Below, one piece after another: positions 1 to 53,807 of a DNA stretch of 53,807 bases. Below the pieces are notes generated by a model, which searched no databases, was not told the origin of the DNA, and saw only the letters and a list, made by a program, of their open reading frames with translations. A program made the translations under genes and the position numbers. Origin of the DNA: a virus (Duplodnaviria > Heunggongvirae > Uroviricota > Caudoviricetes); the IMG/VR virus record IMGVR_UViG_2718217709_000003; one strand, given 5' to 3'. Each line of letters opens with the position of its first letter. Positions within the stretch are counted from its first letter, which is position 1.

Positions 1-725
1 ATGACGGTCGCCCAGTGTCTCGACTACTGGTTCGACAACTACGTCTCTACAACTCTCAGAGAAAAGACCCAGGCACTTTACCGATCAACGGTTATGAAGC
101 GCATGCATGACGCCTTTCCTAATCGTCCGGCATCTTCTATCACGGTTAAGCAATGGGTTGACCTGCTTACCGAAGAAGAAAGAGATAATCCACGCCGAGC
201 AAGGCAGGTGCTAAGTCAACTAAGATCAGCAATAAGTTGGTGCATGCGGCGTCAGTTGATAGATAGTTGCGCAATTATGAGCATCCAACCAAGGGACTTC
301 GGCTCCCGCGCTGAGGTAGGGGATCGGGTACTGTCGTATCACGAACTGGCTAAGATTTGGCTTGCTATTGAAAGAAGCCGTGCGTCTACGTCAAATAAGC
401 TACTTCATCAGATGCTTATGCTGTGGGGGGCGAGGCTCTCAGAGCTTAGGCTGGCAACAAAGACAGAGTTTGACCTGCTGGACAACGTATGGACCGTACC
501 GAAAGAGCATAGCAAGATGGGTAATGTTATCCGCCGTCCAATCTTCGAACAAATTAAGCCTTTCCTCGAAAAGGCCATGACAACGTACAATGATGTTCTT
601 TTCCCTGGAGAAGACATAAACAAACCGATCAGCATCGCTGCAGCCAACCGATTCGTAAATAGAATAAGGGGAGGGATGGATATAGGTTACTGGCGAACAC
701 ATGATTTCAGAAGAACGCTTGTTAC
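1..725 (+). pseudogene. P4-type tyrosine integrase, 5' portion (runs off the window start; interrupted by IS100)
   Basis: Frame-1 translation ends in the integrase box ...WRTHDFRRTLVT before the reading frame enters IS sequence at 726; the 3' portion resumes after the IS. Confidence 0.7.
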
Positions 726-3028
<2,303 letters not shown>

Positions 3029-3227
3029 CTTAATTCTCCAGGCAAAAAGAAACCGCCATATAGCGGCTCTATCAGATATGTACAGGCCTCATCGAGTGTG
3101 AGGCTGTGTGATTTCTTTATTTCCACTCTTAATGTTTGTCAGTGAATGGTTTCTCTATCTCCATTAATGCCTTATTCATCTCATTTCGTAACTCTATAGC
3201 CATCCTGACGGCTTCAACCTGTGCAGG

Positions 3228-4286
3228 ATGTCGGTTATGGGCGATTTAGCCATGAGGGCTAACGTCGCTCTTTCTCAGGGACCGGAAGCCTACAGTAAAT
3301 TCATTACTGACAACAAGGACAGGTTAAATCGCGTTGGTGCTAATGCTGACTGGATGATTCAGACAGGTATCCAGAATCCAGAGCAGCTATCACACATGCT
3401 GACTACTATGTCTCTCGGTGCGCTTGGACCAGAAAAGGCGTTTGCTGTTCAGGATAAGATGGCTGGTCGTGAAATTGACCGAGGCAGGCTGGCAGAGACA
3501 ATCCGCAGCAATCAGGCTGGTGAAGCACTTCAGGCGAGAGGGCAAAACCTTTCCTATCAGTCAGCAATGACTGGGCACAATATCGCAGCACAACGCTTGG
3601 CTCTGGATCAGCAAGAGTTCGGGTTTAAGATGCAGCAAGCGCAGGAAAAGGCTCAGCAGTTGATTAGTGAAGCACCTAAGCTGTCAGTAAACATGGAAAA
3701 AGGCATCGAGACGGCTGTAAACAATGCCACAGCATCATCAAACTCAGCCAATTCTATGAGTGCGCTTGCTCAACAGTTCAGAGCAGAAAAACCAACGACA
3801 GGTTTGTTCGGTAACGCACAGAACATGTTCGCAAAACTTACCGGAAGCGATACGACATTGCGTGATTTGCGCATCCGCCAAAATGCCCTTGTTAACAGTC
3901 AGGTTCTTAAATTCCTACCTCCCGGCCCAGCAACGGATAAAGACGTTGAGATCGTTCGGCAGGGTGCGCCAACTGACATGGATAACCCTGAGACGGTCGC
4001 AAGATGGCTTGATGCAATGGCAAACCTTGAGCGACGAAACGCGCAGTTTAATGAGTTTAAAGCTGAGTGGATGAGCGCGAATGGCAATCCTGGACAATCG
4101 CGTAATGGCGGTCAGATATTGGGGTTGGATGTTAAAAAAGGTGAATCATTGGGGAGTGCCGTTAAGCGGTATATGTCATTGAATACTGACGCAGCGCCAG
4201 CACAAGATTCGACACCTTCAGGAGAACCACGGAATCAGGTTGGATCATATACCTCAAAATCAGGCATTCAATTTACGGTGGAATGA
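3228..4286 (+). CDS. Hypothetical protein (352 aa); possibly a P22 gp20-like ejection protein
   Basis: Long ORF rich in Ala/Gln/Asn, translationally coupled (ATGA overlap) to the next ORF; lies upstream of the immI region and tailspike where P22-like phages encode ejection proteins. Product is inferred from position only. Confidence 0.4.
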
Positions 4287-11957: not shown

Positions 11958-11968
11958 TGGATTTGCCC

Positions 11969-12874
11969 CTATATTTCCAGACATCTGTTATCACTTAACC
12001 CATTACAAGCCCGCTGCCGCAGATATTCCCGTGGCGAGCGATAACCCAGCGCACTATGCGGATGCCATTCGTTATAATGCTCGAACGCCTCTGCAAGGTT
12101 CTTTGCTGCCGTTAACCCGTCTGGTTTGGGCATGATACTGATGTAGTCACGCTTTATCGTTTTCACGAAGCTCTCTGCTATTCCGTTACTCTCCGGACTC
12201 CGCACCGCCGTGTTCTTCGGTTCAAGTCCCAACATCCGGGCGAACTGGCGTGTTTCATTAGCCCGGTAGCATGAACCATTATCCGTCAGCCACTCCACTG
12301 GAGACGACGGAAGATCGTTGCCGAAGCGGCGTTCCACCGCTCCCAGCATGACGTCCTGTACTGTTTCACTGTTGAAGCCGCCGGTAGTGACCGCCCAGTG
12401 CAGTGCCTCACGATCACAGCAGTCCAGCGCGAACGTGACACGCAGTCTCTCTCCGTTATCACAGCAGAACTCGAACCCGTCAGAGCACCATCGCTGATTG
12501 CTTTCTTTCACGGCCACTCTGCCTGTATGTGCCCGTTTCGATGGCGGTACAGCAGGTTTTCGCTCAAGCAACAGCGCATTCTGGCGCATGATCCGGTAAA
12601 CACGTTTGGCATTGATCGCAGGCATACCATCAAGTTCTGCCTGTCTGCGAAGCAGCGCCCATACCCGACGATAACCATACGTGGGCAGCTCTCCGATAAC
12701 ATGGTGTATACGGAGAAGCACATCCGTATCATCAGTGTGACGACTGCGGCGGCCATCCATCCAGTCATCGGTTCGTCTGAGAATGACGTGCAACTGCGCA
12801 CGCGACACCCGGAGACAACGGCTGACTAAGCTTACTCCCCATCCCCGGGCAATAAGGGCGCGTGCGCTATCCAC
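11969..12874 (-). CDS. insD: IS2 transposase InsD (OrfB, 301 aa)
   Basis: IS3-family DDE transposase ORF within the IS2 boundaries. Confidence 0.85.
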
Positions 12875-13197
12875 TTTTTTGCCCGTCCATATTCAACGGC
12901 TTCTTTGAGGAGTTCATTTTCCATCGTTTTCTTGCCGAGCAGGCGCTGGAGTTCTTTAATCTGCTTCATGGCGGCAGCAAGTTCAGAGGCAGGAACAACC
13001 TGTTCTCCGGCGGCGACAGCAGTAAGACTTCCTTCCTGGTATTGCTTACACCAGAGAAATAACTGGCTGGCTGCTACACCATGTTGCCGGGCAACGAGGG
13101 AGACCGTCATCCCCGGTTCAAAGCTCTGCTGAACAATTGCGATCTTTTCCTGTGTGGTACGCCGTCTGCGTTTCTCCGGCCCTAAGACATCAATCAT
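12832..13197 (-). CDS. insC: IS2 InsC (OrfA, 121 aa)
   Basis: [40 protein letters not shown]... HTH protein; overlaps insD in the usual frameshift arrangement. Confidence 0.85.
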
Positions 13198-13288
13198 CTG
13201 TTCTCCAATGACTAGTCTAAAAACTAGTATTAAGACTATCACTTATTTAAGTGATACTGGTTGTCTGGAGATTCAGGGGGCCAGTCTA

Positions 13289-22338: not shown

Positions 22339-23434
22339 CAGACACTCCAGTCATGTTAAGAGTGATTGCCGTACAGTTTGCCCATTCGTTTTCTGCCACC
22401 ACCCGCAGTGCCGGTGTCACCAGTTCAACCTGGTACACCCCGGAAACGGACAATGCACTGATAATCTGGCTGGGGACAATATCGCGCCCCAGCGTGGCGG
22501 CACGTGATGCCACCCAGTTCTGTATGGCGCTGTTAGCGGCATCTTTTACAGACCTGGCATCCTGATCACGATAGATCGTAATCCTGGCTTCAATGGTGTA
22601 ATCCACCTTCACTGGTGTTTTAGCCCGCACTGTATCAGTGAGTGGCCTGACTTTCTCATCAGAGCAGAAACTCTCTACCAGCGTGAGAACACCGCCGTCC
22701 GGCAGACCGGTACTGAGCAGCGGATACAGATCTACGGTCCCGGGAACCGGGGAAAGCACAGCAACATCGACAATGTTGGGATGGGCCTGCATGGCATGAA
22801 AGCGGTATGCGCCACGGCTTCCGGCATTGGTGAATGACTCCGGGGCCAGCCTGATACGCTCCCGGAGCCTGTCATCGTCTTCCTGTTCTGAACCGCCGGA
22901 ACTGGCCGTCAGATTGCTCACCAGCAGGTCGACGTTATCAATCTCATCGAGTAACTGACTGACCTGCGCAGGTTGCCAGCCGTTACCAGCGGTACCGGGT
23001 TCGGTACAGGTGGACGTGACATTGACCAGCAGCAATCCGGCCTTCAGTACCACATCTGTATCGGTGGCAAAAATAACGCTGTCGGAAGCGCTGACGCGGG
23101 TGCCTGCCGGGATCAGCACATCAATGGCCAGTGCCTCATCTACGGAGAACTGGAGCGTGGTGGTGGCAGGCTGCGCGGCAAGACGGTATACACCAACCAG
23201 TTCACCGAGGTAATCAATCATCGGCTCACGGGCAAAGGCGACCAGATTCTGCTTTGCTGCCTCCTGTACCGCAACCCTGACCAGCATTTCGCGATAGGCC
23301 CACAGATCAATCAGCAGACGTTCTGCCTGTGCCGGGTACAGCGTTTTGCCGGTATCCGCTTCATACTTCGCAATCATTTCTGCCGTGATTTTGTCGGCAT
23401 CGCGTTCAATAAAATCGGGTTCTGTCAGCGCCAT
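22331..23434 (-). CDS. Baseplate protein J-like (367 aa)
   Basis: Size and position upstream of the gpI-like and fibre genes, as in P2 gpJ / Mu gp47. Confidence 0.7.
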   Translation of the reverse strand: MALTEPDFIERDADKITAEMIAKYEADTGKTLYPAQAERLLIDLWAYREMLVRVAVQEAAKQNLVAFAREPMIDYLGELVGVYRLAAQPATTTLQFSVDEALAIDVLIPAGTRVSASDSVIFATDTDVVLKAGLLLVNVTSTCTEPGTAGNGWQPAQVSQLLDEIDNVDLLVSNLTASSGGSEQEDDDRLRERIRLAPESFTNAGSRGAYRFHAMQAHPNIVDVAVLSPVPGTVDLYPLLSTGLPDGGVLTLVESFCSDEKVRPLTDTVRAKTPVKVDYTIEARITIYRDQDARSVKDAANSAIQNWVASRAATLGRDIVPSQIISALSVSGVYQVELVTPALRVVAENEWANCTAITLNMTGVSDD

Positions 23435-23772
23435 AGCAGCTCCTGAGTCCGGGTCTGTCCGTCTGAGCCTTTCCAGCTCACCCGGAGCGTAAGATGTTCG
23501 CCGTCGACGGCGGGTTTAACTGACATAAGCTGGCAGCGGGGCTCCCAGCGCCGGATGGCATCGACGGATTCGCGCACCACATGCGGAATGGCCCGGTCTA
23601 CAGGCCAGTCGATATAAAGATGCAGATTGCTGCCGAACTCCGGGCGATGCGGGTCGCTGCCGCGGGGAGTCCGCAGGATAATTTGAATCGCCTGCCGGAT
23701 ATCATCCAGCCCCCGGACAATTTCGCCGGGAGCCTGCAGGGCTGGTTGCCAGAATACTGAGGTCGTTTTCAT
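23425..23772 (-). CDS. Baseplate wedge protein, gpW/gp25-like (115 aa)
   Basis: Small protein between the V-like and J-like genes, matching the P2 V-W-J-I order. Confidence 0.65.
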   Translation of the reverse strand: MKTTSVFWQPALQAPGEIVRGLDDIRQAIQIILRTPRGSDPHRPEFGSNLHLYIDWPVDRAIPHVVRESVDAIRRWEPRCQLMSVKPAVDGEHLTLRVSWKGSDGQTRTQELLWR

Positions 23773-23826
23773 GGGGGCAGTATTGCCCCCGTGCGGGAAC
23801 GCTGATATTAAAGGCGTTTAAGAAGC

Positions 23827-24423
23827 TCAGTGGGAGTGGTGGCTGGAGTTTTCGCCATCAGACAGCATACTGCCCGTGGCATGGGCATTCCCTTTAATCT
23901 CGATATTGCCATGGATGGTCGCGGTAACACCTTTACCACCAGAACCCGCCATGCCTCCTTCGTAAATCAGCTTTCCCCTGACACGCAGATCTCCGGTAAG
24001 TTCGGTTTCCGGTGCGTCAATCGTGGCTTTCTGTGTTTTCAATACCACATCAGCACCACACTCAATGACAATATGCTCAATGCCGCCCCGGATGGTCAGA
24101 GTGTGCGTCTTCCGGTTGTAGCTGTACTCTGCACCATCAGCAAACCGGGTTCCCCGGATATTTTTGTCACTGAACGGTGGTTTATCGACGTCTGAATACA
24201 CCGCGCCCAGAATAACACCATCCTCGCCGTTGGCATCGAGCAGCACCTCAACCTGCTCCCCCACGTCAGGGAGCCAGTAATCTTTGTTATCCTGGGTATT
24301 GCGCTGCAGCACGTTAAGCCAGTTTGTGCGCAGGTTATCGCATTCAGGCAGACGAACGCGGGCCTGAACACTGTCGGCATCAACGGCACTGACCGTACCG
24401 ACCTGACGAGTGACACCAGTCAT
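23827..24423 (-). CDS. Baseplate spike / assembly protein V-like (198 aa)
   Basis: Gly-rich C-terminal tip and conserved position upstream of the W/J/I genes. Confidence 0.65.
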   Translation of the reverse strand: MTGVTRQVGTVSAVDADSVQARVRLPECDNLRTNWLNVLQRNTQDNKDYWLPDVGEQVEVLLDANGEDGVILGAVYSDVDKPPFSDKNIRGTRFADGAEYSYNRKTHTLTIRGGIEHIVIECGADVVLKTQKATIDAPETELTGDLRVRGKLIYEGGMAGSGGKGVTATIHGNIEIKGNAHATGSMLSDGENSSHHSH

Positions 24424-25574
24424 TTTTTCTTCTCCTTAATCACCGTCGATGTACTGCCATCCGGGTGATAAACCGTGAGTTTCTGAGTTTTTTGTTTTTT
24501 CCCTCTTGTGACTGGCCCCCGTGCCACTTCCAGCTCTGTGGTGTAGCCGCTGTTACGGTCAAACGCATGGCGGGCAGTGGTTATGAGCCATGGCCCGGAT
24601 AACTGCCCAAAACCCACCAGTTCAATTTTGTTGCCTGCTGTCAGTTGAGGTGTTCCCGTCAGCGTCAGGGAGCCGTTCTGCTGGTATTCGTTATGTCTGG
24701 CCAGTGCTGAATCCGCTTTAATCCGGGCACTGTCCGGGTCGCTGACGCGGCTGTTAACTTTAAGTGAGTCAGCGCTGGTAACCTTACCACCTTTGAGCTT
24801 TTTGTCGCTTTCACGGGTACCACCATCAGCTTCGTAGACGATCAGTTTTTTACTGCTGCTTTTCTGGTGTTTTACCTTTGCAGATTTATAGACCCGGTTG
24901 ATGGTGTCACGCAGGGAAAAGCGGGCCACATCCTGCGGTTTTAACTGCCTGACCGGCTCCTGACTGCGCAGTGTGGCCAGATGAGAAAAAATCAGCTGGT
25001 CACTGACCACTTTCACTGCATAACCATACTCGCTGGCCAGCCGGCGCAGAAAACCCACGTCGGTTTCAGCATACTGGGTCACCCGGTCGATTCTGATGGA
25101 CTCAATGCTGCCCACCAGTTTCAGTCGGTGCTTTCTGGCAATCCGCCCCGCAACAGCTGCCAGCGTGGTGTTCTCAAAACCACGACTGGTTTTAGTCCGC
25201 AGGGCACTGTTAACCGAGGTGGCCACCCCACGGATAGAAACAACGGAAGCGGGCGAACTCACTTCGATCTCGTCTATAGAGAACGTACCGCAGGACAGCA
25301 GCTTCTCGCCCTGATAGCCCATTTTCAGCGTCAGCGTGTCACCCTTGCCCGGATACCATTTATCCAGCCAGCGGCCATCGGTGTCGTCCAGCTCCACCTC
25401 AATGGTATCGGACTCATTTTTGATGTTATCGCTCCAGGTCACACGGGTGACATAAGGCGCGATATCAGAGGTGATGTTTTTCTGCAGATACCACAAAGTG
25501 AACACCGGTGTCAGCACATCGCTGACGCCGGTTAACGCTGATGTGACTTGCGCAGTGCTGTTTATCTCAGCCAT
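24420..25574 (-). CDS. Tail protein, P2 gpD-like / Mu gpP-like (384 aa)
   Basis: Size and position after the X-like and U-like genes, as in P2-type tails. Confidence 0.65.
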   Translation of the reverse strand: MAEINSTAQVTSALTGVSDVLTPVFTLWYLQKNITSDIAPYVTRVTWSDNIKNESDTIEVELDDTDGRWLDKWYPGKGDTLTLKMGYQGEKLLSCGTFSIDEIEVSSPASVVSIRGVATSVNSALRTKTSRGFENTTLAAVAGRIARKHRLKLVGSIESIRIDRVTQYAETDVGFLRRLASEYGYAVKVVSDQLIFSHLATLRSQEPVRQLKPQDVARFSLRDTINRVYKSAKVKHQKSSSKKLIVYEADGGTRESDKKLKGGKVTSADSLKVNSRVSDPDSARIKADSALARHNEYQQNGSLTLTGTPQLTAGNKIELVGFGQLSGPWLITTARHAFDRNSGYTTELEVARGPVTRGKKQKTQKLTVYHPDGSTSTVIKEKKK

Positions 25575-25777
25575 GGGGCAATATCCTCTTCTGTACGGGC
25601 TTCTTCAGCCTCAATCACCGGGATCAGTAACAACAGCCCGGAGGGCAGCACCGGCGTGATGGCCACGTGCGGATTGGCGGCAATAATCCGGGGATAGCCC
25701 AGCGGGTCACCGTAGTACTGCCATGCCAGCGAATCCCAGCGCTCTCCGTCACGGGTAACATGTTCAAGAAACATCAC
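25562..25777 (-). CDS. Tail protein X-like (71 aa)
   Basis: Small protein immediately before the gpD-like gene, as in P2. Confidence 0.55.
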   Translation of the reverse strand: MMFLEHVTRDGERWDSLAWQYYGDPLGYPRIIAANPHVAITPVLPSGLLLLIPVIEAEEARTEEDIAPWLR

Positions 25778-26658
25778 ACACTCCTCGTCAGTATTCTGGC
25801 GGCCATTGCACTTAATCCCGGAGACATGCGGTTGAATGCTGTGCCGGCGGCATTAAGCTGTCCGGAAACGGTATCCAGAGCACCTGCAATATTTCTTTTG
25901 TCCACACCACTCAGCGCAGACTGTGCCTGCTGTACATACGTGACTGCTTCGCTGGCTGTTCTGGCCAGACTGATGGCATCGGGCATGGATTCAGAGAGTG
26001 CGTTAAACGCCGGAACACTTTTCCCCAGAGCCCCGGAGATATTACCCAGTCCGCTCATCAGCCCCGGCACACGGGTCAGTGCGACAACGGGGTTATCCTT
26101 CATTTTCTGTGTCACCCGAACGGCGCTGATAGTGGTCTGGAGTACAGACTGCGCCTGTTTCGCATAGTTGACGCCGTTGCGGATGAACTGCGCCACCCCT
26201 GAAGGTGAAGGTATGGCACCGGAGACCGCCCCGACACCCGGTAGCTTCGTGCGTATTGCCGGTGGTTGCAGAGGATTTTTCGGGTCACCGGTGTATTCCC
26301 GGAGAGACACGGTGGCACTGACAGCCAGCACGTTGCCGGTACTGTCAGTCTGCTCGCTGGTTGCAGTCACATCGGTAATCACGAACCAGCCACGATAGTC
26401 ACCGTTGCCGAAGACCAGCGCCAGTGCCTGATGGGCTTTCATGGTTGTTCGCAGTCTCGCCAGCTCCACATCGGGTACACAATAATGCTGATGGAAGACC
26501 AGACTTATCTGGATTTCGTCCAGCCTGTCGCCGACGAACTGCAGGCCAGGCTTACCCCCGATGCGGGCATGCTCCGCATAATCGACGCCGAACGTGGCCT
26601 CGAAGCCGTCCCAGTAGGTAATCAGCTCAAACTCAATATCACCCAGTACGGCAAACAT
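25774..26658 (-). CDS. Tail assembly protein (P2 gpU-like / Mu DNA-circulation-protein-like), 294 aa
   Basis: Position directly downstream of the tape measure gene; family assignment is tentative. Confidence 0.5.
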   Translation of the reverse strand: MFAVLGDIEFELITYWDGFEATFGVDYAEHARIGGKPGLQFVGDRLDEIQISLVFHQHYCVPDVELARLRTTMKAHQALALVFGNGDYRGWFVITDVTATSEQTDSTGNVLAVSATVSLREYTGDPKNPLQPPAIRTKLPGVGAVSGAIPSPSGVAQFIRNGVNYAKQAQSVLQTTISAVRVTQKMKDNPVVALTRVPGLMSGLGNISGALGKSVPAFNALSESMPDAISLARTASEAVTYVQQAQSALSGVDKRNIAGALDTVSGQLNAAGTAFNRMSPGLSAMAARILTRSV

Positions 26659-29609
26659 CAGCGGTACTCCTTACGTTGTTTCTGAGCCAGCAGACGCTCC
26701 AGCATTTTTTCCAGCTCATGCAGGCTCATATTCAGGGCGCCAGTCAGTCCGGCAGGCGCTGTGGTTTCCCTGCCATTGAGGAAAAACTGAGGATTAAAGC
26801 TGACCTGGATACCACCAGACGTTCCACCGCCGGTTGCAGCTGCACCACGGCCTGAATATCCGGCAGCCATGATTTCAGGCGAGGGGATACGGGGAACATC
26901 CGGTGTCATCTCATTTGCCAGACGTTGCCCTGGTAAAATCGATGCCCGGGTGGAGAGCGGGATAGCGGGCATGGAAGACAAACTATTGATTACGGCTCCG
27001 ATCGCATTTTTAGCAGACGACATAAACCCGTTGATATCGGGCAACGGCATACTGAAGCGAACACCTGAAGTGTTATCCCGTATTTCTGGCCCCTGAATGC
27101 TCTCGGGCATTCTGGGGAGCAGTTCACTGGCCATTCGCTGCCCGGCCAGAGCTGCAAGCGGAGTGGTCCGCTGCAGGCCAATGGCGGCCCCCTGCGCGAT
27201 ATTGTCACCAAAGCCCATAAACACGCGGCTCGGCGAATGAATACCCAGCTTTTCACTGAACCAGCCACTGATGCTGTCACCCATTCCGGTTACACTGGAT
27301 TTGAGCGACTCCCATTTGTTTTTGATACCGTTAATCAGACCGTCGACAAGATGGCCACCGAAGTCGGTGAACTTTGCCGGCAGATCAACACCAAGATATT
27401 TCAGCGCAGCTGCAAAGGCTTTATAGAGCAGACCTGCCGGCGACCAGTTAATCAGCAGCTTACCAGTTCCCGCGATACCGCCGTTAAAGGCTTCCTGAAT
27501 GTCAGCCCAGCACTGTTTAAACCAGCTACTGATGCTGTCACCCATTCCGGTTACACTGGATTTGAGCGACCCCCATTTGTTTTTGATACCGTTAATCAGA
27601 CCGTCGATAAGATGGCCACCGAAGTCGGTGAACTTTGCCGGCAGAGCAACGCCGAAATATTTCAGCGCAGCCGCAAAGGCTTTATAGAGCAGGCCTGCCG
27701 GCGACCAGTTAATCAGCAACTTACCAATTCCCACAATGCCGCCGTTAAAGGCTTCCTGAATGTCTGCCCAGCGCTGTTTAAACCAGCCACTGACTGCCCC
27801 CCAGTTGCGGTAGATAAGGTAAGCTGCTGCCGCGACAGCGGTGATAACGAGACCGATGGGATTCATCATCAGCGCACGTCCAATCCAGAGAACAGCACGT
27901 CCGGCGAGCATAATTCCGCGAACCAGCCCCCCGGAGAGCACGCCACTCAGTGTTCTGGCTCCTCTGGCGACGGCGCTAAATCCGGTCACCAGCCAGCGGA
28001 GCTTACCGCCTTGCCCCAGTGCGAGCGACAGACGAAGCCAGTTGGCCCGAAGTAAAACAGCATTTTTCCAGACACTTACAAAGGGGGAAATAAGGAGATT
28101 CAGCCCCAGTTTGAGACCAACAGTCGCTATCTTAATCGCAAGGAGCGCACTGATGAGCTTAAAAGCCCCACTGACAAATTGCGGGTGAGTCGCTACCCAG
28201 TGTTTTGCCCCCTGAATGAGTGGAAGCAGTTCCTGAGTCAAAGAAATAAAAGATGGAGCTAATTGATCGCCCAGCGTAATTGCCAGATCGCGACTGCTGA
28301 CCATAAGTGTTTTAGTGGCTTCAAGGGGAGATTTCAGCCGCTGATCATAAGCACTGGCAAGCAAATCGTTATCCGCAGCCCTGAGAGCACCGGCACGGAT
28401 CTCTCGATATCTGTCCATGTTGGCCAGCATCGGGCGGATAAATGCCATGACCTGCATATCCGCGAACATATCGCCCAGACCAAAGTTTTTCGCCAGAGCC
28501 TGAAGTGCCTCATCTCTTGCCGTATCATTCTTTATTTTCATGGCTGATTTGAAGCCGGCCAGCGCTTCGGGGCTTTTGGCATTGAGGTAACGTTCTATAA
28601 CACTCAACATCCCTTCAATCGGAGAGATCCCCGCAGCTTTATAACTCGCAATAGATCCCTGCAAATCAATACCCAGATCAGCAAACTGTTTCTGAGTATC
28701 GCGGGCAAAAATTTTGGTAAGAAAGTTTTTAAAATTATTGGCTGCTTCGTCGGTGGAACCTGCACCGATTTTTGCTATCTGGAGACTGGCCCCGATTTCA
28801 GCAACAGCCTCTTTTCCACTGGCAATACCCGCCATCATTGGGGCCAGGGACTGCATCCACTTGACCTGATCCGGGATTTCAAATGACCCCTGATCACCGG
28901 CATAAGCCATAATATTCTGAACGGCACCAAAATCTCTGGCCGCACCTTTCAGGGAGTTTTGCCAGACTGCGGCCACTTTTGCCCAGTCCTGAGCAGACGT
29001 GCGTGTTGCCGTTGCCGCGCGGGCAATATCCGGCATCAGAAAACCGATATCTGACACATTATCAATATTGTCGCTGATGAGTGAACCCACCGCCTCCTGC
29101 AGCTCATCCTGATACTGATTGTATTTAAGCGCCCAGCCTTTTATCTGTCCGGCAAGTGCATCCCGCGTTTTATTGTCATATTTTGCGGTGATCGACATAT
29201 CAATCATTTTGTCCTGAAAAGACATGGACTGCTGAACGGCAGGGGAAACCGTATGATAAACAGTCTGTGCCATGCCATACGCTTCAATCCCCTGACCATA
29301 CAGCGCCATGCGGTTAGCTTTCAGCGCATCACTGGTAGCGGATGCCGCTGACAGACGGCGCTGCTGGCGCTCAATTTGCTCCATGGTGCGGCTTACCCGC
29401 AGCAGCTCGCTGTTGAGATGCTGCATCCGGGAAGAACCCAGTTGACCATAACGTTCTGTTGCACGGGTTAAAGCGTTCTGACGTTCCTGCAGGCGGCGTG
29501 AGGTATCGCTCAGGGAATCAAGCGCACGGCGGGTACCGCTCATTGCAGAACGGAATGTGCTGCCAATCATCCCGCCGATAACAACGCCGACTGAAAACTG
29601 TCCCGACAT
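26658..29609 (-). CDS. Tail tape measure protein (983 aa)
   Basis: Very long, Ala/Gly-rich protein with a hydrophobic central region, downstream of the frameshifted chaperone. Confidence 0.85.
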   Translation of the reverse strand: MSGQFSVGVVIGGMIGSTFRSAMSGTRRALDSLSDTSRRLQERQNALTRATERYGQLGSSRMQHLNSELLRVSRTMEQIERQQRRLSAASATSDALKANRMALYGQGIEAYGMAQTVYHTVSPAVQQSMSFQDKMIDMSITAKYDNKTRDALAGQIKGWALKYNQYQDELQEAVGSLISDNIDNVSDIGFLMPDIARAATATRTSAQDWAKVAAVWQNSLKGAARDFGAVQNIMAYAGDQGSFEIPDQVKWMQSLAPMMAGIASGKEAVAEIGASLQIAKIGAGSTDEAANNFKNFLTKIFARDTQKQFADLGIDLQGSIASYKAAGISPIEGMLSVIERYLNAKSPEALAGFKSAMKIKNDTARDEALQALAKNFGLGDMFADMQVMAFIRPMLANMDRYREIRAGALRAADNDLLASAYDQRLKSPLEATKTLMVSSRDLAITLGDQLAPSFISLTQELLPLIQGAKHWVATHPQFVSGAFKLISALLAIKIATVGLKLGLNLLISPFVSVWKNAVLLRANWLRLSLALGQGGKLRWLVTGFSAVARGARTLSGVLSGGLVRGIMLAGRAVLWIGRALMMNPIGLVITAVAAAAYLIYRNWGAVSGWFKQRWADIQEAFNGGIVGIGKLLINWSPAGLLYKAFAAALKYFGVALPAKFTDFGGHLIDGLINGIKNKWGSLKSSVTGMGDSISSWFKQCWADIQEAFNGGIAGTGKLLINWSPAGLLYKAFAAALKYLGVDLPAKFTDFGGHLVDGLINGIKNKWESLKSSVTGMGDSISGWFSEKLGIHSPSRVFMGFGDNIAQGAAIGLQRTTPLAALAGQRMASELLPRMPESIQGPEIRDNTSGVRFSMPLPDINGFMSSAKNAIGAVINSLSSMPAIPLSTRASILPGQRLANEMTPDVPRIPSPEIMAAGYSGRGAAATGGGTSGGIQVSFNPQFFLNGRETTAPAGLTGALNMSLHELEKMLERLLAQKQRKEYR
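27261..27758. repeat. Tandem duplication of a ~249-bp unit (83 codons) inside the tape measure gene
   Basis: Tape measure segment WFKQ(R/C)WADIQEAFNGGI...GMGDSIS occurs twice in tandem; the antisense ORF 27237-28055 shows the same 83-aa periodicity. Confidence 0.8.
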
Positions 29610-34900: not shown

Positions 34901-36016
34901 TTACAGGCAGCGTGCGACAGCAGCCTCATAGCTGATGCCTTCTTTTTTGGACAGGGCCACTGCTTTCTGATGCAGGGCCAGACGCTCAGGATCGGCTTCC
35001 GCAAACTCTGCCACATCCACCTTCACCGTGTCGCCGACACGCTCTTTTGTGGCCTGTTCGGCGAAATTCATCACCGGCTCCCCGTCGGAGAGCAATGAAC
35101 GAAAGGCGGTGGCCAGCGGTGTGCGGCTTTCCCCCTCAGCAAACTCCACCGGCTTGTCGCCACCGGCAACGGCATCCAGCAGGGCAACCACCACGGAGGA
35201 GGCGCGGGGAGCCAGACGGCCCTCTGCGACCAGTTTTTCTGCAAAGGCCACATTGTCCTTATGCAGTTGCTCCTGTCTGACCTGTGCATCACGCGCATCG
35301 CGATCAGCAGCCTGCTGCTTCAGGCGGCGGTTCTCCTCCTGAAGGGCTTCAATCTCTTCTTTTGTCATCGATGATTCCTCGTTACTTGCGGAAGACGGCC
35401 CCGGGCCTGTCTCACTGAATTGTGCACCTGCTGCATCCTGCGACAGTGTGTCGCGGTACGCCTCTTCGCGCAGACTGTTGAGCTGCCATTCCGGCAGGAC
35501 TTTTTCTGCCTCGTCCAGACTGAAGCGGGCGATCAGAAAATCGCGCAGCTTTCCCCACAGGGAGGCATTCGTGATGGCCTGCCAGTCGGCGAACTCCACC
35601 ACACCTTCTTCCTGCTCACTGAAGGACACCTGTTTCAGCCCCTTGACGGAAGGTGGCTGTGCCCCGAGAAAGCCCACATGGCGAAGGTAGAGCACGCCGG
35701 GCTTCGGATTGGACGGTGAATCCGGGAGGTAGAAAGAGGCGGACACTTTTTTGAATCGTCCGTCGGTGACCATCTCAGCAAACTGCGGGTCCAGCTGGGC
35801 AGGCTCTGCCATCAGATCGACGCCGCTGAGCGACAGGGCTTTCACCCAGCCCCACGCCGGGTCTTCCGTTCTGGGATGACCAATCACGAGTGGTGCTTCA
35901 TGGACGGACGGGTCATAGGCTTTCACGCAGGCGGCAAGATCGTCTGGCGTGAACGGCAGTTTTTTGCCGTGCATATCGGTATGAGTACCGGCTTTAAAAA
36001 TGTGAATGGCTGACAT
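34901..36016 (-). CDS. Head protease / scaffold protein, Mu gpI-like (371 aa)
   Basis: Acidic, Ala/Glu-rich coiled-coil C-terminal half typical of scaffold; precedes the capsid gene. Confidence 0.7.
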   Translation of the reverse strand: MSAIHIFKAGTHTDMHGKKLPFTPDDLAACVKAYDPSVHEAPLVIGHPRTEDPAWGWVKALSLSGVDLMAEPAQLDPQFAEMVTDGRFKKVSASFYLPDSPSNPKPGVLYLRHVGFLGAQPPSVKGLKQVSFSEQEEGVVEFADWQAITNASLWGKLRDFLIARFSLDEAEKVLPEWQLNSLREEAYRDTLSQDAAGAQFSETGPGPSSASNEESSMTKEEIEALQEENRRLKQQAADRDARDAQVRQEQLHKDNVAFAEKLVAEGRLAPRASSVVVALLDAVAGGDKPVEFAEGESRTPLATAFRSLLSDGEPVMNFAEQATKERVGDTVKVDVAEFAEADPERLALHQKAVALSKKEGISYEAAVARCL

Positions 36017-47886: not shown

Positions 47887-48278
47887 TGAATACGAATAAC
47901 ACACAAAATACCCTGATGGACAGCCCGGAGGCACTGGGGCACGCACTGTGTAATCTGCTGCCGGAGATGGTGCAGGGTTTCCGCGTGGTGACCCCTTCCG
48001 GTGAAATCTGCGTACCCGCACAGGAGACGCACCCGTTTGTACTGACGATGATTACGCTATCAGGTAACAGCCGGAAATTAAAAGCCTGCCGAATATCTGC
48101 CAGATACCTTTTTGCCCGCGCCTTTTTTAAGAACGTCAGGCCGGGGATCACAATTGGTGTTATTGCCGGACGCGAACAGGTTGAAAAATACATGTCAGGT
48201 GCATGGTGGAATAACGACCCTGTCATTGCTGCCCGTAATATTCATATCAGTTGGGGGGATATTCAGAATGACGGCTGA
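47886..48278 (+). CDS. Hypothetical early protein (130 aa)
   Basis: ORF coupled to the preceding gene. Confidence 0.4.
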   Translation: MNTNNTQNTLMDSPEALGHALCNLLPEMVQGFRVVTPSGEICVPAQETHPFVLTMITLSGNSRKLKACRISARYLFARAFFKNVRPGITIGVIAGREQVEKYMSGAWWNNDPVIAARNIHISWGDIQNDG

Positions 48279-50042: not shown

Positions 50043-50553
50043 TGTTTATTTTTTCCCTGGGGCAGGGGCTGCCGGCATAGTGGTTTTATTGGCAGAGGAA
50101 GACGATTCTCCTTTTCTACCGGAATCGCGCTCGAACGTCACGATGTGCTTGCTTTTGGGCTTTTCTGAGTAATCCAGGCTATCATGCTTATTGTTTTGAG
50201 TAGTCATTGGAATCATCCTTTTTGTTGCGGGTCATGTTTCAGCAAACTCGATTCTAAGTTGCCAGGAAGGATGATTTCAATGCCCGACTTATCTATCGTA
50301 TAGCGGAAAAGAATTTCAGTTCTGTTCACCAGAACCCATGTTAACCCACTCCAATTCGTTATTTATCTCACGGATCCCCCTTCATTTATCTCATGTCTGA
50401 TCAGAAATGAAGCCTGTTGAGTGAGATTCACCGGTTCTGGTGCAGAAGCTGCAGATGGCGCAGGGTAAGGACATCTTCTCTTGCCTGCTTAATACAGGAC
50501 AACAGTGCTGTTTCTGTGGTTAATGGCACTATACCCTGCATCACTGCATTGTC

Positions 50554-50748
50554 TTACAGCAACTGGTGAGGGCTGGCATAAGTTGCCGGTGTTTCGGTAG
50601 AGTCACGGTCATCCACCACGCGGAGTGAATAACCTTTTTCAGCGGCCTTATTAATCAGTTCAGTGATATTAACACCATCAATGTCAACGACAATGTGCCC
50701 CATATCCAGCGCCTGTACGTTAACGCTGTCGGCTTCCAGTGTCATCAT
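50554..50748 (-). CDS. yeeW: YeeW-like protein (64 aa)
   Basis: Small ORF whose start overlaps the end of the cbtA reading frame, as in CP4-44. Confidence 0.55.
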   Translation of the reverse strand: MMTLEADSVNVQALDMGHIVVDIDGVNITELINKAAEKGYSLRVVDDRDSTETPATYASPHQLL

Positions 50749-51118
50749 TTCGCCTCCGGATACTTACCCAGGGTAATGTTATTTACCGTTCTGTAATTGT
50801 CGCGGGTCATCAGGCCGGTCGCCCTGCGAGCCCGGAGGATATCGATGCTGTTTATTAACTGAGAGCGGGTACAGGCGCTGAATCCCGGCTGGTCGGTAGC
50901 ACCAGCGCGTATTTTTCCACGAGAAAGTTCACCGCATCACACAGTGAAATGCCTGCCTCAATATGCTGCTCAATCACACGTTCATCGGCAAAAGGTGTGT
51001 CATTCAGTGTGAGGCCATAGTGCTGGTCCAGCAGTCGGGACAGCAGTATCTGCCAGATTTCAACAGGAGACGGGCGAGAACTGGTCGCCTGCCCGGGTAA
51101 TACAGGTAATGTTTTCAT
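50745..51118 (-). pseudogene. cbtA: cbtA (yeeV) toxin gene with an internal frameshift
   Basis: N-terminal 71 aa match CbtA; after ...VEKYALV the conserved C-terminus ([46 protein letters not shown]) is encoded in a different frame; shift near 50895-50902. Confidence 0.7.
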
Positions 51119-51206
51119 ACTGAAGATTTTCCTGATATGCAGATATAAAAATGGAAAAGTGGCGTGGTGAAAACACCAGGCCGTAGCAGAAGGCTATTCT
51201 GGAGAG

Positions 51207-51575
51207 TTAATTTTTCATTTCGGGCGTCGGATAAACAGCCAGATAAACGTAACCACAACTGCTGAGGGTATCGGCTTTGCAGGTCAGCCCTTTTGCATAC
51301 AGCGTGACGGTATGCTGATGGCGGGGATTCAGTTCACCGCTGGTGAGCATGAGTTCCAGTTGTTTCATCAGCAGCGGAAAGGCCTGGTCCAGGTGGTACG
51401 CATCTGCATCGCTGAACAGGCCTCTGATACCGGCGCGGTCGGCAAGGTAATGCAACCGGTTACCCTCCTGCACCAGACGTGCCCCGAAACAGGGCGTCAC
51501 GGTGCAGGGCAGCCCCCACCAGGGGCGGTCGTGATTGTCGTCGGGAAGTGTTGTCCCGGGGAGTGTGTCTGACAC
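51207..51575 (-). CDS. cbeA: CbeA (YeeU) antitoxin, 122 aa
   Basis: MSDTLPGTTLPDDNHDRPWWGLPCTVTPCFGARLVQEGNRLHYLADRAGI... matches CbeA from memory. Confidence 0.8.
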   Translation of the reverse strand: MSDTLPGTTLPDDNHDRPWWGLPCTVTPCFGARLVQEGNRLHYLADRAGIRGLFSDADAYHLDQAFPLLMKQLELMLTSGELNPRHQHTVTLYAKGLTCKADTLSSCGYVYLAVYPTPEMKN

Positions 51576-51648
51576 GATAAAATCCTTACAGAAAATCGGC
51601 TAAGAATGGTCCGGTAGTGGCGATAATTCTGCTCATCAGAATTCCCAC

Positions 51649-51870
51649 TCAGTTCAGGGTGACGCTCATCAGCCGGACATACGGACCAAAACTGTCCTTA
51701 CGACGTTCAGCAAACACGGCCAGCACACCGGGAATATCCTGCACTTCACGACCGGTATACGCTTCAGCACTGCCATGCCAGCGGTATTTACCGGTACAGA
51801 ACGGAAAAAGACGGGATGTCGGATGTTGTTGGTGAATACGCATGGCTTCACCACGGGTGATAATTTTCAT
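51649..51870 (-). CDS. yeeT: YeeT-like protein (73 aa)
   Basis: Small conserved ORF between yeeS and cbeA, as in CP4-type islands. Confidence 0.6.
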   Translation of the reverse strand: MKIITRGEAMRIHQQHPTSRLFPFCTGKYRWHGSAEAYTGREVQDIPGVLAVFAERRKDSFGPYVRLMSVTLN

Positions 51871-51932
51871 AATGGGATACCTCTGAAGACAGAAGATAAA
51901 AGTGAAAACAGGTGTGATGTGGTTGTGAAGGG

Positions 51933-52409
51933 TTAAAGCAGACCATGTTCGGCAAAGGAGAAAACCTGGTTGCCACCGACTATCAGATGGTCCGGCACCC
52001 GGATATCCACCAGGCCCAGTGCCTGTACCAGACGTTCCGTGATAAGGCGGTCTGCCTTACTGGGTGTGACTTCACCGGAGGGGTGATTGTGTGCCAGCAC
52101 CACGGCAGCGGCATTGTGGTACAGGGCGCGTTTAATCACTTCCCGGGGATGGACTTCCGTGCGGTTGATGGTGCCGGTAAAGAGGGTTTCACCGGCAATC
52201 AGTTGATTCTGGTTATTCAGATACAGCACCCGGAATTCTTCACGCTCCAGTCCCGCCATGTTCAGAATCAGCCATTCCCGTGCTGCACGGGTGGAGGTGA
52301 AGGCCACGCCGGGTTCATGAAGATGGCGGTCCAGGGTTTTCAGGGCCCGTTGAATGAGGCTGCGCTCGCCGGGCGTCATCTCTCCGGGCAGAAAGGAAAG
52401 TTGTTGCAT
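51933..52409 (-). CDS. yeeS: RadC-like JAB-domain protein YeeS (about 158 aa)
   Basis: JAMM motif HNHPSGEVTPSKAD; start taken at MQQLSFLPG. Confidence 0.75.
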   Translation of the reverse strand: MQQLSFLPGEMTPGERSLIQRALKTLDRHLHEPGVAFTSTRAAREWLILNMAGLEREEFRVLYLNNQNQLIAGETLFTGTINRTEVHPREVIKRALYHNAAAVVLAHNHPSGEVTPSKADRLITERLVQALGLVDIRVPDHLIVGGNQVFSFAEHGLL

Positions 52410-52424
52410 TGTGCTTCTCTCCAT

Positions 52425-52904
52425 TCAGTCGATGATGCGCATAATGGCGCTGCATTCCGGATGCTGCAGGGCGTAATCCCGCAACCGGTAATAATGGACC
52501 GTCATGGCATAATTCTCCGTACGACAGGCATGATGACTGTACGTCATCAGACAGGCGGCAATACCGGCGGCTTCCGGGCTCATTTCTGCGCGGTTACCGT
52601 TCATGGCATTGAACAGTACCCATGTTTCGTCATCATCGTCATCCGGTTCGGGTGCCATAAATGCCCCGCCGTTGTTCAGGGTGTACAGATTCCAGATACC
52701 ACCGCAGTAGTCTTCGCACAGACGGTCCATCCAGCCGAAGACACGGGGCTCCAGGGTCACCCACTGTGGAATGAGGCCAAAATGCTGCGGCCAGAAGCTG
52801 ATGCGCTGTTCATCAGGGACGAGGCTGGCAACCAACTGAGGCGGATTATTCTCTGGTGTTGTAGCTGAATAAATTGTGGGGGTATTCTGAGAAACGGTTT
52901 TCAT
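52425..52904 (-). CDS. Antirestriction protein, ArdB/KlcA-like (159 aa)
   Basis: Acidic stretch PEPDDDDDETW and the conserved island position upstream of the radC-like gene. Confidence 0.6.
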   Translation of the reverse strand: MKTVSQNTPTIYSATTPENNPPQLVASLVPDEQRISFWPQHFGLIPQWVTLEPRVFGWMDRLCEDYCGGIWNLYTLNNGGAFMAPEPDDDDDETWVLFNAMNGNRAEMSPEAAGIAACLMTYSHHACRTENYAMTVHYYRLRDYALQHPECSAIMRIID

Positions 52905-52985
52905 GAGATAACTCCTTAAATAACAAATAAATGTGTGTTTTTCAGGAACGAAAGCTGAATGATTCCCTCACTCAGGGAAACGGCA

Positions 52986-53807
52986 TCAGCGCAGGCTCTC
53001 CAGCATCGTTTCTGCCATCACCCACAATGCGCGATTGAGCTTAATGTCGGTATCAATGCTGTGAATGGCACGGGTATGGATACGTTTTCCTTTTGCACTG
53101 CGACCGGAAATCCCGCCTTTCAGCATATTCTCCTGGATGGTCTGATATGCGCTCCACAGGTCCTTACCGTAATCCTCCCGGCGTCGCGGCGTCAGAATGT
53201 CGGCGGTGGTGACGGGCTGATGTTCGTCACCATAACGGTAAGTCAGTGCCGCCTGTGCCAGCGCCTGGCGTGCCGGTGGCGGCAGGACCAGCGACTGCAT
53301 GGCATCACGCTTCTCCTCTATCCGGTCAAACACGCCCACCACCTCGTAAGCCCCTTCGATAACTTTCTCCACTACATTTCCCCGGTGTGGAACACGCACT
53401 TCCCCCAGAGACTGGCCACAGACGCACCCGTTCTGGCAGACGAACCTGAAGTAACCCGGCAGCATCTGGTAGCTGGAGGTACCGTCATGAGAGTTGAGCA
53501 GAATAATTTCAGGGACATGTTCTCCGTTTATCTCTCCGGCCCGCCGCAGACGCAGCATGTGTTTTGTGTATCCCCGGCGGCCCGGGTCGCGCACACGGGT
53601 CTGGCAGGCGAAGAACGGCTGAAAGCCTTCCCGCTGCAGATTTTCCAGGACGGTAATGGTGGGAATGTACGCATACCGTTCACTGCGGGAGGTGTGCCGG
53701 TCTTCCCCAAAAATACTGGGTACATGGCGTATCAGTTCTTCATGTGTCAGCGGACGGTCACGGCGTATCTGGTTTGCAGCATAACCAAAACGACTTGCTA
53801 ATCGCAT
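52986..53807 (-). CDS. DUF932-family protein (YfjQ/YafZ-like, 273 aa); start codon at the last base of the window
   Basis: MRLASRFGYAANQIRRDRPLTHEELIRHVPSIF... typical of CP4-type island DUF932 proteins. Confidence 0.6.
   Translation of the reverse strand: MRLASRFGYAANQIRRDRPLTHEELIRHVPSIFGEDRHTSRSERYAYIPTITVLENLQREGFQPFFACQTRVRDPGRRGYTKHMLRLRRAGEINGEHVPEIILLNSHDGTSSYQMLPGYFRFVCQNGCVCGQSLGEVRVPHRGNVVEKVIEGAYEVVGVFDRIEEKRDAMQSLVLPPPARQALAQAALTYRYGDEHQPVTTADILTPRRREDYGKDLWSAYQTIQENMLKGGISGRSAKGKRIHTRAIHSIDTDIKLNRALWVMAETMLESLR

Follow-up and report, generated by a model that had tools for sequence, protein, structure and literature searches.

A common one-base deletion in cbtA beside an intact cbeA points to toxin-first decay at the CP4-44 remnant of Escherichia coli

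CbtA and CbeA, also named YeeV and YeeU, are the type IV toxin and antitoxin encoded in the CP4-44 element of Escherichia coli K-12. According to Masuda et al. 2012, CbeA reportedly bundles and stabilises FtsZ and MreB polymers and does not bind the toxin. The toxin CbtA blocks division and elongation through independent contacts with FtsZ and MreB, of which the former is abolished by the substitution F65S and the latter by R15C (PMC5624674). [quoted passage not shown] Here we analysed a stretch of 53,807 nucleotides (IMG/VR record IMGVR_UViG_2718217709_000003; the window), in which an earlier note, made from the sequence letters, had recognized a frameshifted cbtA beside a cognate cbeA. Our results indicate that cbtA at this CP4-44 remnant has very probably been inactivated by a real, inherited 1-bp deletion in codon 74, a case of toxin-first decay with the antitoxin retained.

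The locus is the right-hand part of the cryptic prophage CP4-44, located between the cob genes and yeeX(tmaR)-yeeA-sbmC-dacD. The genes are arranged in the order yeeS-yeeT-cbeA-cbtA-yeeW, and the flanks are collinear with those of K-12 and other E. coli except for a prophage insertion. The coordinates are given in Table 1, where the last gene listed, encoding the DUF932 protein, extends past the end of the window. As in K-12, yeeW is truncated, its product consisting of 64 residues vs 163 in the paralogue from O157. Beyond yeeW we found a DUF957 fragment (50404-50520), followed by transposase fragments. Judged by its sequence, this CP4-44 remnant is a decaying island, and the deletion in cbtA adds to its lesions.

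Table 1. Features of the cbeA-cbtA locus and its neighbours in the window.
Feature	Position	Strand	Basis
cbeA (yeeU), intact antitoxin gene, 122 aa	51207..51575	-	Pfam, PDB 2H28
cbtA (yeeV) pseudogene; former 124-codon gene, now 374 nt	50745..51118	-	Frame translations, K-12 alignment; RefSeq 'frameshifted'
Residual ORF, 87 codons, then TAA	50855..51118	-	ORF listing, Pfam CbtA_toxin 1-73 of 112
1-nt deletion, G of codon 74 (CGT) gone	between 50898 and 50899	-	K-12 and 12-sequence alignments
C-terminal cbtA remnant, codons 75-124 and stop, -1 frame	50745..50897	-	100% identical to K-12, Pfam
yeeW, 64 aa, N-terminal DUF5983 domain only	50554..50748	-	Pfam DUF5983_N, E 8e-29
yeeT (DUF987), yeeS (RadC/JAB), antirestriction protein, DUF932 protein; all open	51649..53807	-	Pfam, annotation of identical DNA

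The antitoxin gene lies upstream of the toxin gene, with 88 nt between its end and the start of cbtA. Its product spans positions 1-100 of 101 of the Pfam family CbeA_antitoxin (PF06154, YeeU; E 4e-53), and residues 1-122 align with the solved structure of YeeU, 2H28 (E 5e-84). These end-to-end matches agree with the description of cbeA as full length in the earlier note. The protein bears the accession WP_001285585.1, the same as that of CbeA in strain CFS3292, in which cbtA is intact.

The primary structure of the cbtA product was then examined by translation of the minus-strand frames. The 87-residue product consists of 73 native CbtA residues (MKTLPV...LVEKYALV) followed by 14 out-of-frame residues, and the last 50 codons of the native C-terminus (TDQPGF...GKYPEAK*) are stop-free in the -1 frame. 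An N-terminus intact up to ...VEKYALV and a displaced C-terminus of 50 residues were both as the earlier note had read them. The note had placed the shift near 50895-50902 and proposed a comparison with intact cbtA alleles. When we aligned the cbtA-yeeW region with that of K-12 MG1655, only three differences were found in 593 columns: a G>A change in cbtA that leads to A12T, a single G missing in codon 74 (GTGCGTACC to GTGC-TACC), and one SNP in yeeW. The alignment thus confirmed the shift and narrowed it to one missing base. Codon 74 has changed from CGT to C-T, corresponding to the lack of one C on the plus strand, and the site reads GTGCTACC in the deleted allele and GTGCGTACC in the intact allele. 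The context of the deletion, GTGC(G)TACC, contains no homopolymer.

The deletion splits the conserved domain. The 87-residue product covers positions 1-73 of the 112 in the Pfam family CbtA_toxin (PF06755; E 3e-37), and the -1 frame remnant covers positions 75-112 (E 3e-13). Instead of a single uninterrupted ORF of about 124 codons over the whole domain, we found a stop after codon 87. Residues 74-124, that is, the last 51 of 124 and about a third (~35%) of the conserved CbtA_toxin domain, are lost, and 14 unrelated residues are gained. From its reading frames, cbtA here is a pseudogene of the CbtA_toxin family and not a functional member, and from the frameshift we infer the loss of toxin function. 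The 152 nt past the deletion are still identical to those of K-12; secondary decay is not visible in them, an absence that is weakly informative at such low divergence.

The earlier note had offered two readings, a decayed toxin and a sequencing error. Assemblies most often err by single-base indels, and the window represents one assembly, so that a base might simply have been dropped from a true genome with an intact cbtA. We examined this with a 40-mer centred on the deletion junction, using megablast with an exact 28-mer required, which matches the deleted allele only. As a result, the deletion-specific 40-mer was found in 1,507 of 5,426 complete E. coli genomes (~28%), and 1,504 of these matched its full length at an identity of 99% or higher. 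The corresponding 41-mer of the intact form gave 4,597 matches distributed over 3,305 genomes, a count that includes paralogous copies, and some genomes, such as that of O157:H7 PV15-279, hold the deleted and intact forms at different loci. At least 40 independent complete E. coli genomes were 100% identical to the window over the 1201 nt that contain the deletion (50500-51700). Carriers include O157:H7, O145:H28, O121, O111:H8, ETEC O6:H16 and O25, and APEC, and derive from humans, cattle, pigs, poultry, water and soil. In the protein collection, the exact 87-residue protein was present on at least 1000 contigs. Among the GTDB species representatives, the deleted allele was also found in a Shigella flexneri genome, and the intact form in E. 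ruysiae and two E. coli representatives.

We also prepared an alignment of 12 sequences, in which the window was set beside eight carriers from different serotypes and the intact alleles of K-12, CFT073 and CFS3292. Position 50539 of the window is G in all nine carrier sequences and A in all three intact alleles, and this linked SNP suggests a single origin of the deletion rather than recurrent mutation or recurrent error. Nine annotated carrier loci were opened, the eight of diverse serotypes and that of strain 254D-1, whose locus is identical to the window. In every one of them cbtA is labelled frameshifted by PGAP/RefSeq, cbeA, yeeT, yeeS and yeeW are intact, and the genes occupy the same place upstream of tmaR/yeeX. 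Because of the prevalence of the identical deletion, which has been recorded by many laboratories and on many platforms, the linked SNP, and the non-homopolymer context, a sequencing or assembly error can be excluded with near certainty. Of the two readings, decay of the toxin is the one supported by the same deletion in 1,507 genomes and by the annotation of every record opened.

We next consider whether the lesion could be bypassed in translation. If ribosomes slipped by -1 before reaching the deletion, for example at GAA AAA U (codons 68-69), some near-full-length toxin would be made at a low level. No stop interrupts the -1 frame between about codon 62 and the native stop codon, and an A_AAA tetranucleotide is present 14 nt upstream of the deletion. 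On the other hand, the rescued product would bear IRAGA in place of YALVR. Between the last stop in the -1 frame and the stop in the 0 frame, A_AAA was the only such element found and no slippery heptamer of the form X XXY YYZ was present; nor was a Shine-Dalgarno-like stimulator seen upstream of the deletion. The predicted minimum free energy of the RNA around the site (56-57 nt) in the deleted allele was -15.8 kcal/mol vs a mean of -14.7 for shuffled sequences (z -0.37), and the same site in the intact allele also folded no better than shuffles (z -0.21). A pairing of GCUGGU with ACCAGC at the deletion appeared only in the predicted fold of the intact allele, where it lies within ordinary coding sequence, and was absent from the minimum free energy fold of the deleted allele. 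The cbtA homologs of K-12, CFT073, CFS3292 and E. ruysiae, as well as the paralogues, are read in one frame, so the frameshift is not conserved and there is no conserved recoding site. With the heptamer absent and the local RNA no more stable than shuffles, we rejected programmed or adventitious -1 frameshifting, and consider rescue of this kind very unlikely.

The relation of the lesion to the downstream gene was also examined. The ATG of yeeW overlaps the former stop of cbtA (ATGA), and a GGAGG belonging to yeeW itself precedes this ATG by 4 nt. Expression of yeeW could therefore survive early termination in cbtA, and a complete polar loss of its translation is unlikely. The DUF5983/ANF00264 neighbours of cbtA may themselves involve a programmed frameshift, according to a 2026 paper (PMC13294457).

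A further alternative is that the truncated product of 87 residues is a working, attenuated toxin that binds FtsZ and/or MreB, and that the locus represents a modified toxin-antitoxin pair, which would explain the intact cbeA. Both Arg15 and Phe65, substitutions of which abolish binding to MreB and FtsZ, respectively, are retained within the 73 native residues. The start of the ORF and its upstream context are kept, the 12 aligned upstream nucleotides being identical to those of K-12, and the deleted allele is very common. In the abstract of Tan et al. 2011 (Mol Microbiol 79:109), C-terminal truncations of YeeV reportedly still elongated cells. We found no data on CbtA truncations in Heller 2017 or Wen 2017. 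Against an attenuated toxin stands the replacement of about a third of the conserved Pfam domain by unrelated residues. A sequence search for a solved CbtA structure found none, and gives no support for residues 1-73 folding alone. As for the high frequency of the allele, it is equally expected of a neutral, old pseudogene, and PGAP does call the gene a pseudogene. Among the variants of the 87-residue product, changes are seen in the native residues as well as in the out-of-frame ones, and the variants are too few to give power for detecting selection. On this balance, a residual toxin seems unlikely to us, and we retain inactivation of cbtA as the preferred reading.

How, then, could an antitoxin gene outlive its toxin gene? 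If cbtA has been inactivated, the deletion would be what is expected when a chromosomal toxin-antitoxin module decays toxin first; the deleted allele would have arisen once and then become common in E. coli and Shigella. Loss of the toxin would have come without cost to the cell, since CbeA cross-neutralises other toxins, deletions of the toxins or antitoxins are neutral, and CbeA is said not to bind its toxin. Taking into account this toxin-independent action together with the neutralisation of YkfI and YpjF, cbeA could therefore persist without its own toxin. It would do so by drift, or through protection against paralogous toxin copies elsewhere in the genome; these are the two causes of retention that we infer. 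Similar modules occur at a median of three places per E. coli genome. In the two genomes that share the prophage junction of the window (see below), three places match the module, two of them beyond the cbtA locus. A residual role of cbeA against paralogous toxins is thus possible.

A bolder proposal invokes selection and not drift. Either the 87-residue allele would be a weaker or single-target inhibitor of the cytoskeleton, or CbeA, as an orphan, would shield FtsZ and MreB in general from inhibitors that are paralogous or carried by phages. If true, selection would explain why precisely this arrangement, a frameshifted toxin gene with an intact antitoxin gene, persists in ~28% of sequenced E. 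coli. We regard this proposal as improbable, and toxin-first decay remains our interpretation of the locus.

The window contains several other elements. The prophage that interrupts the collinearity of the island is a transposable prophage resembling BcepMu (Bcepmuvirus, PhiKM-like) of 32.9 kb (17537-50403), inserted within the CP4-44 remnant ~150 bp downstream of yeeW. Its termini read TGAT...ATCA; a pair of GATAAATG motifs lies near each of them, at distances of ~13 and 36 nt, and a target duplication of 5-6 bp, GAAAT(G), borders the element. The junction between prophage and host was found in only 2 of 5,426 complete genomes, those of strains 254D-1 and 360D-1 (Nicaragua; diarrhoeal stool in the record of 254D-1). 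In other genomes, the same phage end adjoins many different genes, among them yejF, tdh, malE, sfaA, rstB and tnaB. Over the length of the prophage, 254D-1 and the window match at 100% identity apart from a copy of ISEc23 (IS66 family, ~2.5 kb) at 35992-35999, which is absent in the window; the source of the window is thus a very close relative of 254D-1, distinct from that assembly. Beside the island, just past the right end of the window, cobU is frameshifted in 203740 and 254D-1 and intact in CP53. A complete copy of IS2 (11958-13288, 1331 bp), 99.8% identical to IS2F of K-12, is present in the sbcB-dacD intergenic region.

When compared with phage PhiKM (PQ738613), the prophage is without ~5.7 kb (PhiKM 21980-27696), with the gap located at ~48047-48050 of the window. 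The missing stretch encodes a transposase of 589 residues, a MuB-like 'Eha' protein, gam and several small genes, and no DDE domain was detected by Pfam in the remaining early proteins of the prophage. The apparent oddity of a Mu-like prophage without a transposase is thus resolved as a 5.7-kb deletion relative to PhiKM, and the prophage is probably immobilised and locked in place. In its tail-fibre gene (19826-21763, minus strand), a tandem repeat of 300 bp occupies 20706-21529 (2.7 copies, 99% identity), accompanied by an older periodicity of 168 bp (20513-20941); PhiKM has fewer copies. At the end of the prophage, within 17615-18954, we found a serine recombinase of the Hin/Gin type (Resolvase and HTH_7, E 1e-50). 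Near it, similar segments of ~135-220 bp at 18251-18468 and 18736-18954 match the 3' region of the tail-fibre gene, and are flanked by tail-fibre-assembly genes. The recombinase and repeated segments look like an invertible host-range switch resembling the G segment.

With regard to annotation, our results imply that cbtA should be called a pseudogene here, that the locus does not qualify as a complete toxin-antitoxin system, and that the frameshift is no assembly error in need of 'correction'. One ancient 1-bp deletion in a toxin gene, accompanied by an intact antitoxin gene, is found in about a quarter of complete E. coli genomes and in several pathotypes. The locus would thus illustrate in nature how decay can begin with the toxin and leave a type IV antitoxin as an orphan, with relevance to the fate of chromosomal toxin-antitoxin modules. 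In our literature search, we found no paper describing the frameshift allele.

Among known systems, YkfI/YafW of CP4-6, YpjF/YfjZ of CP4-57 and other pairs of the CbtA/YeeU family belong to the same Pfam families and share the same island architecture with the pair described here, but they occupy different loci and their sequences have diverged; the paralogue from O157 that we examined encodes an intact toxin along with a full-length DUF5983 neighbour of 163 residues. The CbtA/CbeA pair of CP4-44 in K-12 is much closer. It occupies the same locus with the same gene order upstream of tmaR/yeeX, its cbeA is likewise full length, and the region of 1.2 kb is 99.6% identical to the window. What differs from K-12 is the cbtA product, of 87 and not 124 residues owing to the one missing G and with A12T in addition; the absence of the left part of the island (yeeP, flu and yeeR) in those carrier loci whose upstream flank was opened; and the BcepMu-like prophage downstream of yeeW. 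The closest counterpart is the allele annotated by RefSeq/PGAP as 'cbtA, frameshifted' in O157:H7 PV15-279, O145 RM9467, O121 201805972, O111:H8 02-3334 and ETEC, which carries the same deletion at the same locus and is 99.2-100% identical to the window over 1.2 kb. A12T is common to only some carriers of this allele, and nothing substantial differs between them and the window. The frameshifted cbtA is therefore already known, as a public pseudogene annotated in RefSeq, and is a case of ordinary gene decay.
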